Shown here in pieces: positions 4,988 to 9,581 of a stretch of DNA of 64,000 nucleotides. This stretch comes from a virus (lineage: Duplodnaviria; Heunggongvirae; Uroviricota; Caudoviricetes). The translations under genes were made by a program, and so were the position numbers. Numbering within the stretch: position 1 is the stretch's first letter; the number at the start of each line of letters is the position of its first letter. Where the stretch lies: the IMG/VR virus record IMGVR_UViG_2609459800_000001; one strand, 5' to 3'. The notes beneath the pieces are model-generated. The model was not told where the DNA came from and ran no database searches. It saw only the letters and a program-made list of their open reading frames with translations.

Positions 4988-7248
4988 AAGAGCTGTGCTA
5001 TGGATCTGTTTGCAGTGGAATTGAAGCCGCGAGTATTGCCTGGGAACCGTTGGGTATGCGTCCGGCGTGGTTTGCTGAAATCGAGCCTTTTCCATCTGCC
5101 GTTCTTGCGCACCGCTGGCCCCATGTCGCCAACCTTGGCGACATGACAAAACTTGCCAAAAAAGTCCTGGCTGGGGAAATCGAATCCCCTGATGTGCTCG
5201 TCGGGGGTACGCCTTGTCAGGCATTCAGTATCGCGGGCTTACGTGGTGGGCTTGATGATGAACGCGGCGCGCTAACTTTGAAGTATGTGGAGCTTGCAAA
5301 TGCAATTGACGACAAACGGTCTGAGTCCTTCCTCAAACCGACAGTTATCGTCTGGGAAAATGTCCCAGGAGTCCTGTCATCGGCAGATAACGCCTTCGGA
5401 TGTTTCCTTGCCGGATTGGCTGGAGAAGATGCGCCATTTGAACCAGGTGATCGACCTGAATCAGGAAAAAGTAACGCGTTCTGGCGGTGGGATGGCAAAA
5501 CCGGTTGCCATGCTCCAAAGTGGCCGCAGTGTGGTTGTATTTATGGACCGCAGCGAAAGGTGGCCTGGAGAATCCTTGATGCCCAATACTTCGGAGTGGC
5601 ACAACGACGCCGACGCGTGTTTGTTGTCGCAAGTGCTCGAACAGACCTCGATCCCGCAACGGTACTTTTTGAGTTCGAAGGCGTGCGTCGGAATATTGCG
5701 CCGAGCCGAAAAAAGAAGGAAATCGCTTCCGCCATTATTGCAAATGGCGCTGCAATCAGTGGCGAAAGCCTAAATCCATGCCTACACGCTGACATGCCAC
5801 CCGGTATGAAATCGACGAAAGCCGTAAACGCTTTCAGGATGGCAGCATTTGGGGAATATATTGACGATGAAACCGCATCGACAGTAAAGGCAAGAGATTT
5901 TAAAGATGCCACTGACCTTGCCGTTTTTAGCAGCACAGGAGCAGGTTTTTGGTCAGAAGGGCATGGTACATTGCGGGCACGTGAGCAAGAAAGCCATGAG
6001 CATCTTGTTACATTGGCTTTTCCTGAGCGTATGAGCGGTACACAACATGCTGCAACTAAGAATACTTCACCATCTCTAATGGCTAAAAATCCAACAGCTG
6101 TTTGCTATGAAGTAAGAAACGCAGAAGTAGCTGTCCGCCGTCTTACCCCTGTTGAATGTGAAAGGCTGCAAGGTTTTCCTGATGGGCATACGTTGATCCC
6201 GACGGAAAAGCGTAAAAAAGTTAATTCAGATGAACTGGCATATCTTCGCAATCACTATCCAGATTTAAGCGAAGAAGAGGCCGCGATGCTTGCAGCTGAC
6301 GGACCGCGTTACAAAGCGATCGGCAATAGTATGGCAATACCAGTAATGCGCTGGATTGGCGATCGGATTACTAAGGCCGTATGTCGGCAGAAAGAAGGAA
6401 GTGAAACAAAAGAGCGAAAAGTTAAACCAGCGGCAGAATTCGAACGGTCCATATTCAAATGGGCTGGTGGAAAATTTGGTGTTCTGGAACAAATCTTTCG
6501 CTATTTGCCAGAAGGGAAGCGCCTGATCGAACCTTTTGTCGGTGGCGGAGCTGTCTTCACGAATGCCGGATACCAGGAAAATCTACTAAATGATGTGAAT
6601 GCTGACCTGATTAACTTTTACAAGACTCTGCAACGCGAGGCGCATTCACTTATCACACTGGCGCATCGTTTCTTCCAGGACTACAACACACAGGAAGGAT
6701 ACCTGGCAGTACGGAATGCGTTTAACAAACAAGTCTATGATGATTTACATCGCGCAGCGGCGTTTTTGTTCCTGAACCGACATTGTTTTAACGGATTGAC
6801 GCGTTACAACCAGGCCGGTGAGTTCAATGTCGGTTACGGGAAGTATAAAACTCCGTATTTCCCATTACAGGAGATGGAAGCCTTCCTCGGTGCGGAAGGG
6901 CGGTCTGAGTTTGTATGCGGTGATTTTGCAGCGGTGATTGAAGCTGCCGGAGAAGGAGATGTCATCTTTTGCGATCCGCCGTATGAACCGCTTCCAAATA
7001 CAGAGGGATTCACGAACTATTCCGGTCATGACTTTAAGTTTGAAGAGCAAAAACGCCTGGTGTCTCTGTTGACGGATGCTCATCGTCGAGGTGCAAAGGT
7101 TCTCATTACTAACAGTGGCGCGCCAAACATCAGAGAGCTTTATCATGACAGTGGCTTCAGAGTGGAACCTCTTTTTGCCAGACGTTCTGTGTCTTGTAAG
7201 GGGGACACTCGAGGTGTAGCTCATGACGTTTTGGGTGTATTGCTCTAA
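4984..7248 (+). CDS. dmt: bifunctional DNA methyltransferase (N-terminal C5-cytosine MTase-like, C-terminal Dam-like N6-adenine MTase)
   Basis: ORF track 754 aa; GTPCQAFS and ENV motifs N-terminally, DPPY motif C-terminally; size and position match P1 Dmt. Confidence 0.8.
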
Positions 7249-7255
7249 TAAATTT
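7239..7255 (+). promoter_or_regulatory. C1 repressor operator (perfect consensus), likely operator of the tRNA-tci-ban operon
   Basis: ATTGCTCTAATAAATTT overlapping dmt stop; next rightward genes are tRNAs, tciA, ban. Confidence 0.6.
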
Positions 7256-7920
7256 ATTAGTGTAATATCGCCTCAATGAATCGTGATTTATAGAGCGATT
7301 TAGCTGTTAGCCGCGACAGGCGCGGCGGTAAGCATGGCTGGGCCTAGTCCTCCCAGACAAACCACCGAGTTGCCAGGTTGACCATGCGCCTAAGTGGCAA
7401 CGCCGAAGTGCGTTACGAGCTTCCAGTTTGCCCATCTTCGGGTGGGCGTTTTTTTCAGGGTTTTCGTCATGGTTAGCGACTTTGCGGCGGTTTAGAAACT
7501 GACCATTAAAGTAAATGCAAACGATGATCTGATGATGGTAGCGGCCTAAGAAGCCAGATGCCACGGGGTATGAGTCGTCCCCCGTCAAAAAATCGACCGC
7601 AGAGTGTCCCCGTCTGTGTATTAGGGAACGGGGAGGCACAACAGGTAAGGGCGCTGGTGTGATTAACCAGATGAACGAGAAGGGGCCATCTGTTGGTCAG
7701 CGTCCTTTCCTGTTGCGTTTTCTTTTCAGCGTAACAGCGGTGCTTAACAGCACTTTGGGTACAGTTCCACGAATTTACGGGTATATCCCGTCATGCTGAA
7801 GGCGCTAATCACGCTGGAAGCCAGGGTTGTGCATCCCCTGTTACCGAATTGCAGCCAGGGCGCGGTGCGCCGAAAAGCATACGGAGGTGGAAGCCCTCGC
7901 CGGAGACGTACCCGGCAAGT

Positions 7921-7996
7921 GATGGTGTAGCTCAGCGGTTAGAGCGGTTGACTGTTAATCAACGGGTCGATGGTTCAAATCCATCCACCATCGCCA
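7921..7996 (+). tRNA. tRNA-Asn (anticodon GTT)
   Basis: Cloverleaf by hand: acceptor GATGGTG/CACCATC, anticodon loop CTGTTAA, T-loop GGTTCAAATCC, encoded CCA. Confidence 0.8.
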
Positions 7997-7998
7997 AT

Positions 7999-8074
7999 GC
8001 CGGTTTAGCTCAGTTGGTAGAGCGCCTGCCTTGTAAGCAGGATGTCAGCGGTTCGAGTCCGTTAATCGGCACCA
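7999..8074 (+). tRNA. tRNA-Thr (anticodon TGT)
   Basis: Cloverleaf by hand: acceptor GCCGGTT/AATCGGC, anticodon loop CTTGTAA, T-loop GGTTCGAGTCC, encoded CCA. Confidence 0.8.
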
Positions 8075-8660
8075 GCACAACAGGTAAGGGTATTTTGCGA
8101 CGTCGGAGATCGCCGAGCTTGGCAGAGGGTTCGAATCCCTACGAAGTACCCTTACCGTTGTGATGAAGTGCAGCTCTTTGAAGCAACCAGAAGATAAGCA
8201 TCTGGCTTCACAACATAAACCGCAGGAACGACCAATAAACGGTAGTCCGTATGGAGAACACCCCGTTGAGGAAGAGGCCTGGCCGGAACCGTAACCGGCA
8301 CTACAACGTTGAGAACACTGGCGTAACGGGGTCATATCCCAATCTACGAATAAATGTTGCGTTGCAGCGTGACAACCAGTGTTCTCAACATTGTGGTGAA
8401 TGCACAGGCTGATGTGCCGCAACTACAGTAGTGCGCGCTTTGCGGGGCTTGCTACAACCCTGTGTCGGAGTTCAGCACCGACCATCACAGTTTGATTCTC
8501 TGGCATGAGCATAACGCTGAAATAAGTCCAGTCTGGTGCGGCCCGATCACCCGCCGTTAGCTCCACGAAACGGAGCACGTAACAGGTAAGAGCATTCTCC
8601 TGTAACGGGTTCATATCCCAATCTACAGGTCCACCAGGAATGCTCTTTCCGTTGCGGTGA
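8075..8660 (+). repeat. noncoding region with diverged direct repeats, a 19-bp long-range inverted repeat and a tRNA-like remnant
   Basis: GTAACGGG(G/T)TCATATCCCAATCTAC at ~8323 and ~8601; AACAGGTAAG(G/A)G at ~8078 and ~8583; CAACGTTGAGAACACTGG (8304) pairs with CCAGTGTTCTCAACATTG (8377); acceptor-like GGTAAGG/CCTTACC around 8085-8160. Confidence 0.5.
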
Positions 8661-8805
8661 ATGCGGCTAAGCGCACGCGGGGAAATGGTTATATCTGTCC
8701 ATTATTTCTCCTTATTTCCCCGTCCACGGTGGATAACCAGCTAAAGGACACCGGGAAGCACCCGGCACCGCAACCTTATTTCCCAACCAGTAATGAGGTT
8801 AATAA

Positions 8806-9231
8806 ATGCTCGGCATTCTCAAAAAGAAATTCCGCAAAGCGGCTGGCGGAGTCAAGAAGATGGAAAACCGTGATGCGGTGGAAGCGACTGTCTGGGGCGC
8901 ATATTCCATTGCATACTCTGACGGCACCTGCGATGCGAAAGAAATTGCAGTATTGGAAAAAACCATTGCAGCACTTCCTGCCTTTGCGCCGTTCTCCGGT
9001 GAAATTGCCCAGATGAGCGCCAATATTCGCGCTCAATATGAAGCCTCGCCGCGCCGAGCGAATGCCCAGGCTTTACGTGAACTGGCTGACGTGTCTGGAA
9101 CTAATGATGCGGTAGATGTTCTGTGCCTATGCATTGATATTGCTGACCAGGATGGCATTGGGGCAGAAGAGCAGGAGCAATTGAAGAAAATTGCCCAGGC
9201 TCTTCAATTGCCACTGGAACAGTATATCTGA
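8806..9231 (+). CDS. TerB-like protein (P1 tciA position)
   Basis: ORF track 141 aa; acidic TerB-like sequence; located between tRNA cluster and ban. Confidence 0.5.
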   Translation: MLGILKKKFRKAAGGVKKMENRDAVEATVWGAYSIAYSDGTCDAKEIAVLEKTIAALPAFAPFSGEIAQMSANIRAQYEASPRRANAQALRELADVSGTNDAVDVLCLCIDIADQDGIGAEEQEQLKKIAQALQLPLEQYI

Positions 9232-9505: not shown

Positions 9506-9581
9506 GGCCCTTTAGCTCAGTGGTTAGAGCTGGCGACTCATAATCGCACGGTCACCGGTTCAAGTCCGGTAGGGGCCACCA
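9506..9581 (+). tRNA. tRNA with CAT anticodon (Met or lysidine-modified Ile)
   Basis: Cloverleaf by hand: acceptor GGCCCTT/AGGGGCC, anticodon loop CTCATAA, T-loop GGTTCAAGTCC, encoded CCA. Confidence 0.75.

Follow-up and report, generated by a model that had tools for sequence, protein, structure and literature searches.

The leader of the ban operon of bacteriophage P1 was analysed within a 64,000-nucleotide (nt) window of viral DNA (IMG/VR record IMGVR_UViG_2609459800_000001), which was identified as P1 (NC_005856, AF234173) from a match of 99.8-99.9% over positions 7200-8810; all positions are those of the window, and features lie on the plus strand unless stated otherwise. The region makes up the first 1.4 kb of the 2.6-kb leader of this C1-controlled operon. 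When the GenBank annotation of NC_005856 was mapped to the window, dmt ended at 7248 and the C1 operators Oban(a,b) and promoters P1ban/P2ban, from which the ban operon transcript starts, were placed at about 7223-7268, the corresponding element of the leader map spanning 7239-7268; a simple sigma-70 scan of the Pban region returned no strong consensus promoter. Further downstream the annotated order after upl is tciABC, trnI and ban. The leader is a mosaic array of structured non-coding RNA modules, consisting in order of a dicF-leader-like pseudoknot with a terminator, a tag template resembling part of transfer-messenger RNA (tmRNA), tRNA-Asn and tRNA-Thr, and repeated units of a long hairpin, designated E, with an STnc100/PasD-like element. 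The first-pass annotation had proposed that the leader of the ban operon holds a structured RNA not yet characterised, and this was borne out more strongly than proposed, since the covariance check across relatives revealed compensatory changes in stems and pseudoknots of many phages. It had named neither the main feature, a tag frame and pseudoknots within 7458-7634, nor the existing annotations "dicF-like region", plp and upl.

The tmRNA-like module at 7458-7634 is composed of an upstream block, a GCA resume codon, a frame of 10 codons and two H-type pseudoknots. It was found by a permissive Rfam scan as weak matches to the permuted tmRNA and beta-tmRNA models at 7444-7587. The tag frame (7517-7549) reads GCA AAC GAT GAT CTG ATG ATG GTA GCG GCC TAA, encoding ANDDLMMVAA followed by a TAA stop at 7547-7549; the resume codon GCA lies at 7517 and the frame has neither a start codon nor a Shine-Dalgarno sequence. 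ARAGORN reports the tag as ANDDLMMVAA* at the 80% threshold, under relaxed settings only. A further in-frame stop is located 8 codons 5′ of the tag, the codon used being TAG almost throughout, with TAA in the lambdoid copy. Ten codons and a stop were present in 134 of 134 copies, in 31 nucleotide versions specifying 17 peptides (for example ANDDLMMVAA, ANDEQFLAVA, ANEEMYLAVA and ANDNTFLAVA) with the pattern AN[DE][DEN]x[FYMV][LMK][AMV][AV]A; the host tag, ANDENYALAA, also has 10 residues. The last tag codon is GCC, GCG or GCT, the ninth is GCG, GCA, GCT, GTA or GTC, and the stop is TAA or TAG, such that third positions of the terminal Ala/Val-Ala codons vary and first and second positions are nearly fixed.

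Immediately 5′ of the resume codon lies a near-invariant block (7458-7516; GGGTTTTCGTC..GCGACTTTGCGG..TTTAGAAACTGACCA..AAAGTAAAT) that is likewise kept in 134/134 copies and has the consensus GUUUUCG..GCGACUUUGCGG..UUUAGAAAC.GACCA. This block aligns to the pre-tag part of the Rfam tmRNA_permuted model (RF04321), at 24 bits compared with a gathering score of 47. The RF04321 consensus around the resume codon, UAAaUGCaAACGAu, is matched exactly in P1 (UAAAUGCAAACGAU), and matches to the same model with scores of 23-33 bits were obtained at the equivalent position in P1, a lambdoid prophage, ECBP1, Sf11, KpV2811 and ESP2949-1.

The tag is followed by two pseudoknots identified from covariation. 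In pseudoknot A (7563-7597), stem 1 pairs ACGGGG (7563-7568) with CCCCGT (7580-7585) and stem 2 pairs GTCG (7574-7577) with CGAC (7594-7597), and in pseudoknot B (7598-7634) the corresponding stems are CGCAGA (7598-7603) with TCTGTG (7613-7618) and TCCCCGT (7607-7613) with ACGGGGA (7628-7634). Each of the four stems occurs in 4-7 covarying versions, with five or more for both stems of pseudoknot A, exemplified by one set comprising GCAAGG/CCTTGT, ACGGGG/CCCCGT, GTGAGG/CCTCAT and GTCAGG/CCTGAT, a second comprising CCGA/TCGG, GTCG/CGAC, CCAA/TTGG and CCAG/CTGG, and a third comprising GCCC/GGGC, TCCCCGT/ACGGGGA, CCCTGA/TCAGGG and GACGGGAG/CTCCCGTC. Across an alignment of 50 sequences 91% of cells were paired, as against 41-51% when the partners were slid; changes on both sides were seen in 11 of 20 pairs, and none of 500 shuffles reached the observed covariation. 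This alignment (A2) contains some out-of-register rows, and the pairing result holds regardless.

The resume context, 10-codon tag and pseudoknots together are the architecture of the message half of tmRNA. The module shares with tmRNA (ssrA; two-piece and permuted forms RF00023 and RF04321) the GCA resume codon with an A/U-rich ..UAAAU context before it and no start codon, a 10-residue tag of the type AND(D/E)...(L/M)(A/V)A(A) with its stop, and H-type pseudoknots after the tag, and the sub-threshold Rfam and ARAGORN matches fall at the right place. It differs in having no acceptor stem, G3-U70 pair or CCA, in carrying two pseudoknots after the tag rather than three and no recognized pseudoknot before it, and in being embedded in a polycistronic leader between long hairpins. 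Known phage tmRNAs are those of mycobacteriophage cluster C, Bacillus phage G and an OM43 methylophage. The tmRNA of mycobacteriophage DS6A, which consists only of a tRNA-like domain (TLD), is also a phage-borne tmRNA half but the opposite one, retaining the TLD and having lost the tag frame, whereas P1 retains the tag frame and pseudoknots.

By blastn, 265 GenBank phage records from unrelated families match 7440-7660 and the module is annotated in none of them, whilst a 34-nt degenerate pattern matches at least 120 IMG/VR contigs and, among bacteria, 4 of 185,579 species-representative genomes. Carriers include the Ackermannviridae PhiSH19, phiEa2809, Magnus and 2050H1, the Schitoviridae phage ECBP1, the Drexlerviridae/T1-like siphoviruses ESP2949-1, KpV2811 and Sf11, Aeromonas phage pIS4-A, and N4-like and lambdoid phages. 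In these the module occupies a non-coding, tRNA-rich stretch that is unannotated or labelled "hypothetical protein". Its 5′ neighbour is either a TTGACA-17-TAGATT promoter (in T1-like phages) or the 3′ arm of a long hairpin, and its 3′ neighbour in most lineages is an E hairpin followed by a block weakly related to STnc100 according to Rfam. No description of the element was found in the literature on P1 ban-leader RNAs, phage tmRNA-like elements and P1 small-RNA transcriptomics, and surveys of viral tmRNAs name no carriers beyond mycobacteriophages, Bacillus phage G and the TLD-only DS6A, none of them an enterobacterial phage (PMC4131195, PMC11915505). The region apparently contains an undescribed tmRNA variant without a TLD.

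Two settings outside P1 were observed in which the module is accompanied by similar cassettes. A 1.1-kb non-coding leader without tRNAs lies between Q and the holin gene (Q-S) of a lambdoid prophage (locus L014, 2240-3390); it holds the tag module, with the tag ANDDLMLMAA, together with an E hairpin whose loop carries a T-arm and with blocks common to P7 and D6, and is situated where the PasA/C/D and STnc100 small RNAs (sRNAs) have been reported. The Ackermannviridae (L020, L146-L148 and L015), which are virulent phages of ~160 kb, possess kilobase-long unannotated cassette stretches with the tag template, long covarying hairpins and T-arm-bearing tRNA-like hairpins. A conserved GTATAGTTA motif, which may be a phage promoter, stands ahead of each of these stretches, and the annotation of phage Magnus shows a series of tiny open reading frames (ORFs) there.

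Upstream of the module, a dicF-leader-like element at 7310-7401 was recognized from homology to the Qin prophage. It consists of a hairpin (7310-7326) followed by a pseudoknot in which GCATGG (7332-7337) pairs with CCATGC (7382-7387), CTGGG (7338-7342) with CCCAG (7352-7356) and GTTGCC (7369-7374) with GGCAAC (7396-7401). P1 7310-7405 shares ~77% identity with the sequence that immediately flanks dicF on its 5′ side in Qin, with one compensatory change in each of the three stems, and homologues are present in 4268 of 5426 complete E. coli genomes. The GenBank label "dicF-like region" is placed at P1 68791-68892, corresponding to about 7363-7464 of the window. The homology is restricted to the 5′ flank, as the DicF model (RF00039) gave no match in P1 at E values up to 10 compared with 76.7 bits in Qin. 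The structured element 5′ of dicF (window 7310-7405; Qin locus L013, 1501-1597) has no Rfam family of its own. A terminator scan identified an intrinsic terminator at 7429-7455, the hairpin GCCCATCTTCGGGTGGGC followed by T7, which occupies the site of DicF in the Qin alignment and is the sole terminator-like site in 7150-8900. The dicF locus of Qin (ydfC-dicF-dicB) and the P1 leader have in common a structured 5′ element followed by a terminator-ended short RNA. P1 differs in lacking the DicF sequence and in that the tag template, tRNAs and E units separate the 5′ element from the STnc100-like piece.

The remainder of the array is dominated by the E hairpins. E0 (7637-7715; arms CACAACAGGTAAGGGCGCTG and CAGCGTCCTTTCCTGTTG; predicted fold -45.9 kcal/mol, z = -5.8) follows pseudoknot B, an arrangement also seen in T1-like and other phages. 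E1 (8076-8162; z = -6.1) lies directly 3′ of the tRNA-Thr CCA, E2 (8299-8398; z = -5.8) has a 23-bp stem in which a C-A mismatch becomes C-G in P7 and D6, and E3 spans 8579-8655 (z = -3.8). For E0-E3, none of 200 dinucleotide shuffles folded as well. At least 77 distinct members of this hairpin family were present in the loci compared, with lower stems conserved in sequence (CACAAC(A)GGTAAGRG.../...CYCTTWCCGTTGYG), upper stems that covary and loops of 7-93 nt that differ freely and sometimes end in a T-arm; a conserved U-G wobble in the stems would read as an A-C mismatch in the opposite strand. In E0-E3 the stem measures 20-23 bp and contains no more than 1-2 mismatches or bulges, a length consistent with the approximately two helical turns recognized by RNase III, and the possible processing signals of the first-pass annotation can reasonably be seen in these stems. 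RNase III stems process polycistronic transcripts such as those of rRNA operons and the R1-R5 sites of the phage T7 early region, and the phage T4 tRNA cluster yields the stable species 1 and 2 RNAs. The P1 array resembles these systems in having diverged copies of 20-23 bp near-perfect stems between functional RNAs of one transcript and, as far as can be judged from sequence, non-tRNA RNAs alongside phage tRNAs as in T4. The E stems differ in being conserved in sequence across unrelated phages with exchangeable loops, and their cleavage in P1 is putative.

In E1 the 13-nt arms (8083-8095 and 8144-8156) extend to ~20 bp as CACAAC-A-GGTAAGGGTATTT/AAGTACCCTTACC-GTTGTG, and the loop contains a small hairpin as well as, at 8126-8140, a T-arm-like AGGGTTCGAATCCCT. 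The first-pass annotation had pointed out an acceptor-stem-like pair near 8085-8160, and this pair is present; it is not called a tRNA by ARAGORN or the Rfam tRNA model, and E1 has D-arm-like and T-arm-like hairpins but no anticodon arm. The E1 stem is retained in P7 and Ro157 with a different loop, and some P1-like contigs carry both loops in tandem. A possible degenerate E-type element at 7726-7850, in which GTAACAG (7732-7738) and CTGTTAC (7836-7842) enclose the hairpins ACGGGTATATCCCGT and CAGGG..CCCTG, was read from the sequence itself and from a comparison of P1, P7 and D6-like loci; it is kept among P1-like elements only and is the weakest part of the map.

The E hairpins alternate with spacers that were delimited by comparison with relatives. 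Spacer 1 (8162-8298) carries the hairpin GAAGCAACCAGAAGATAAGCATCTGGCTTC at 8180-8209, and its first part, including this hairpin, is common to SSU5-like plasmids, after which Ro157 has an insertion of ~160 bp. Spacer 2 (8395-8490) is an STnc100-like paralogue with GGTGAATGC and a hairpin at its start and the hairpin GTCGGAGTTCAGCACCGAC followed by CATCACAG at its end, as indicated by comparison with a unit inserted in locus L031 and with 8656-8774. The latter is an STnc100/PasD-like element directly 5′ of tciA, detected with the Rfam STnc100 model (RF02076) as a match at 8653-8772 (33.4 bits, E = 1e-4, model positions 31-147) that falls short of the gathering score, 47. It has the closing helix and CACCGGGARGCACCCGGCACC hairpin of that family and occupies the same place in a phage leader, just 5′ of a small gene that modulates the host, namely tciA in P1 and dicB in Qin. 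The STnc100 model also gives a match between dicF and dicB in Qin (34.4 bits, likewise below the gathering score), and an STnc100-like block follows the E hairpin in T1-like phages. P1 differs in having approximately three diverged copies alternating with E hairpins. STnc100 and PasD are prophage-encoded sRNAs, the Pas sRNAs having been detected by RIL-seq on Hfq-bound RNA (bioRxiv 10.64898/2026.05.13.724894).

P1 8076-8774 is made up of three diverged units of an E hairpin plus an STnc100-like spacer, which explains the diverged direct repeats listed by the first-pass annotation. One of these, GTAACGGG(G/T)TCATATCCCAATCTAC, was confirmed as two copies identical at 24 of 25 bases in the loops of E2 (copy 1, 8323-8347) and E3 (copy 2, 8602-8626), and another, AACAGGTAAG(G/A)G (core AACAGGTAAGRG), was found at 7640, 8079 and 8581. 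The closest match to the 19-bp long-range inverted repeat reported there is a 23-nt pair (8299-8321/8376-8398) with 91% complementarity, which is local, its arms being only 54 nt apart. The sole truly long-range inverted pair is a perfect 12-nt complement, 7550-7561/8198-8209, of which the copies are 636 nt apart, one directly 3′ of the tag stop and the other forming the 3′ arm of the hairpin at 8180-8209; by our own arithmetic about 0.08 such pairs would be expected by chance, and the pair may reflect paralogy or alternative pairing.

Exchange among relatives takes the form of tRNA insertions (Tyr, Ser(UGA), and Arg replacing Asn), unit duplications and loop swaps such as that of the E1 loop between P1 and P7. 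A whole extra unit is inserted in RCS47-like contigs, and SJ46 compared with window 8340-8618 has a deletion exactly between the two 25-nt repeat copies, a clean case of repeat-mediated deletion within the array. The same cassettes occur in SSU5-like plasmids and lambdoid Q-S regions.

Two minus-strand genes are annotated across this part of the leader, plp ("putative lipoprotein"; 8045-8422) and upl (8423-8614). Both overlie E hairpins and plp also overlies tRNA-Thr by 30 nt. No PHROG family was found for plp, which is intact in 12 loci only, all at least 98% identical to P1, and is split, frameshifted, truncated or stopped in 40 others, including loci of 84-98% identity with in-frame stops. 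It is interrupted by the 160-bp insertion in Ro157, by a partial swap in P7 and by the extra unit in RCS47-like contigs. Similarly, an intact upl is confined to DNA of at least 97% identity, and the P7 annotation contains neither gene. A minus-strand ORF of 110 codons (7307-7639) was considered as the cause of conservation over the tag and rejected, as the stop-free length over the tag ranged from 20 to 160 codons in 96 distinct members, and no conserved ORF on either strand was found among relatives. Since plp, upl and the minus-strand ORF are broken in relatives, the earlier statement that the stretch after the tRNAs has no convincing ORF holds despite the two annotated genes, which are probably annotation artefacts.

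Our tentative interpretation, to which we give somewhat less than even credence, is that the ban leader is an RNA array with a tmRNA-derived tag template that is processed and used in trans-translation-like tagging. Homology, structure, covariation, codon-level conservation and distribution were observed; expression, processing, translation of the tag and a partner with tRNA-like function are inferred. After derepression, read-through of the terminator would generate a leader transcript, in which an RNase III-type activity might cut at the 20-23 bp E stems and tRNA-processing enzymes at the tRNAs, the products being the tRNAs together with small hairpin RNAs and a ~180-nt tag-template RNA. Ribosomes would then use this RNA in a trans-translation-like manner such that rescued nascent chains would receive the phage tag rather than the host ANDENYALAA. 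The tRNA-like function would be supplied from elsewhere, either by host tmRNA-SmpB or by a phage T-arm-bearing E hairpin.

A number of observations weigh against this interpretation. No TLD was found in cis, that is, no acceptor stem with G3-U70, adjoining T-arm and 3′ CCA, and ARAGORN with default settings was negative at all loci; with the module lacking such a domain there is no known route for ribosome entry into the tag frame. Candidates for complete tmRNAs called by ARAGORN under relaxed settings were rejected. For the P1 candidate at 7326-7847 (-ps80), P7 alters the 5′ acceptor strand from GGTAAG to GGCAAG with the partner unchanged, and in D6-like plasmids the 5′ half is missing while the 3′ half is retained. 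In the PhiSH19 candidate (GCUGUUU/AAACGGC-U-CCA; -ps85), GCUGUUU belongs to a local hairpin, as its 5′ arm; this hairpin covaries, is present in all Ackermannviridae loci and has a 3′ arm that abuts the GUUUUCG of the module. A tRNA-like piece 3′ of the pseudoknots in ECBP1 was rejected as a TLD on account of its poorly paired acceptor stem. All Rfam tmRNA matches are below the gathering score, with 23-33 against 47 bits for RF04321 and 6-19 against 84 for RF01850. The upstream block showed no consistent covariation among family members, and no pseudoknot or helix within 7458-7516, and nothing equivalent to tmRNA pseudoknot 1, was found. The best duplex of the block's GCGACUUUGCGG with host tmRNA, whose sequence was verified before the pairing test, is located at CCGCAAAAAAUAGUCGC but was equalled by 14 of 100 shuffles. 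The terminator at 7429-7455 lies between Pban and the module, so expression of the module in P1 requires read-through. Finally, the search pattern fixed tag codons 1-3, a search bias that leaves codons 4-10, the frame length and the stop as the only independent evidence of tag conservation.

The main rival explanation, which we consider rather unlikely, is that the module is an untranslated mimic of the message part of tmRNA, acting as a decoy for a host factor such as ribosomal protein S1, SmpB, RNase R or the stalled ribosome, which it would titrate or block; host trans-translation would thereby be damped or redirected while the phage grows. This would account for the missing TLD, and a near-invariant but non-covarying upstream block is as expected of a protein or ribosome contact; a precedent in reverse is provided by the TLD-only tmRNA of DS6A, which inhibits tmRNA in E. 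coli (PMC4131195, PMC11915505). A decoy, however, has no need of exactly 10 codons, a stop and third-position variation of the terminal Ala codons, all of which are seen in 134 copies, and these features are left unexplained by it; that the phage tags are unlike the host tag would also be odd for a pure mimic.

Other explanations are less likely. The E stems could act mainly on DNA, as homology arms or recombinase hairpin sites for cassette exchange between phages, and it is true that the arms are conserved in sequence across P1-like, SSU5-like, lambdoid, T1-like and Ackermannviridae elements whilst the content within and between them is exchanged. The G-U/U-G wobbles are nevertheless placed consistently on the transcribed strand, all copies point in the direction of the operon and the carrier phages share no recombinase, which makes a predominantly DNA-level role quite unlikely, although DNA and RNA roles of these stems are not exclusive. 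It is more improbable still that the array represents debris of recombination that now lacks a function of its own, made up of repeats and of pieces of decayed tRNAs and tmRNA that remained when cassettes were shuffled in phage tRNA clusters. Loop swaps between P1 and P7, the coming and going of tRNAs Tyr, Ser and Arg between the same stems, the SJ46 deletion, tandem duplications in some relatives and the T-arm-like piece inside E1 are all compatible with such shuffling; conservation of the module in unrelated virulent and temperate families with four compensated pseudoknot stems and a preserved frame speaks against it, as does the covariation of E stems with a strand-specific U-G pair, and P1 8490-8577 is not detectably a tRNA remnant (see below). 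That the stretch after the tRNAs encodes a lipoprotein, Plp, together with Upl on the minus strand, the repeats being incidental, has in its favour the P1 annotation, which includes predicted Pupl promoters, and matches of upl to two PHROG families of unknown function. Given the overlap of plp with tRNA-Thr, its lack of a PHROG family and the disruption of these genes in relatives described above, we judge it very improbable.

A broader and more doubtful proposal is that such "half tmRNAs" of enterobacterial phages reprogramme host trans-translation with phage-chosen tags (ANDDLMMVAA, ..LAVA), thereby changing which proteins are destroyed, with E stems forming a shared processing and exchange cassette system for these RNAs and tRNAs among unrelated phages. 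A tmRNA is not known to act other than as a single unit, or as a base-paired couple of pieces, in which tRNA-like and message-like domains are joined. A message-only phage RNA under peptide-level constraint would imply either a new route by which templates are fed into trans-translation or a new regulator of ribosome rescue. It also bears on the long-open question of why some phages depend on or interfere with ssrA, which the presence of the element in the genetically tractable P1 makes testable there. The array accounts for "empty" DNA, amounting to several hundred base pairs, in many phage genomes where the annotation currently shows either nothing or spurious small ORFs, P1 plp and upl being argued here to be mis-annotations, and it brings the dicF leader, STnc100/PasD sRNAs and phage tRNA clusters together as a single family of RNA cassettes that can be exchanged.

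The tRNA cluster itself was confirmed by both ARAGORN and Rfam, with tRNA-Asn(GTT) (trnA) at 7921-7996 and tRNA-Thr(TGT) (trnT) at 7999-8074 scoring 74.5 and 72.9 bits. Apart from these two, the only cloverleaf to pass RF00005 and ARAGORN was a tRNA with a CAT anticodon at 9506-9581, called tRNA-Met(CAT) by ARAGORN and annotated in GenBank as trnI, a tRNA-Ile2, which is 89% identical to E. coli ileX. Additional tRNA calls made by ARAGORN under relaxed settings overlap the real tRNAs and look spurious. The suggestion in the first-pass annotation that the region holds decayed tRNA genes was mostly unsupported, a T-arm-like loop being found in E1 only. A tRNA-Ser(UGA) stands at the position of P1 8490-8577 in P7, D6 and SSU5-like plasmids, and the P1 sequence was examined as a decayed copy; this was rejected, as 35% of shuffles aligned to tRNA-Ser as well. 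The tRNA-Ser(UGA), absent from P1, is 87 nt long in P7 (L005, 3320-3406), D6 (L004, 3607-3693) and SSU5-like plasmids (L007-L012), and has an apparent unusual 5-bp D-stem, a 4-nt loop and a long variable arm, recalling tRNA-Sec or allo-tRNAs; in the D6 record it is not assigned by tRNAscan-SE. In D6-like loci a short E-type hairpin (CACAACAGGAAAAGGCG...CGCCGTTTCCGTTGTG) follows the tRNA corresponding to trnI.

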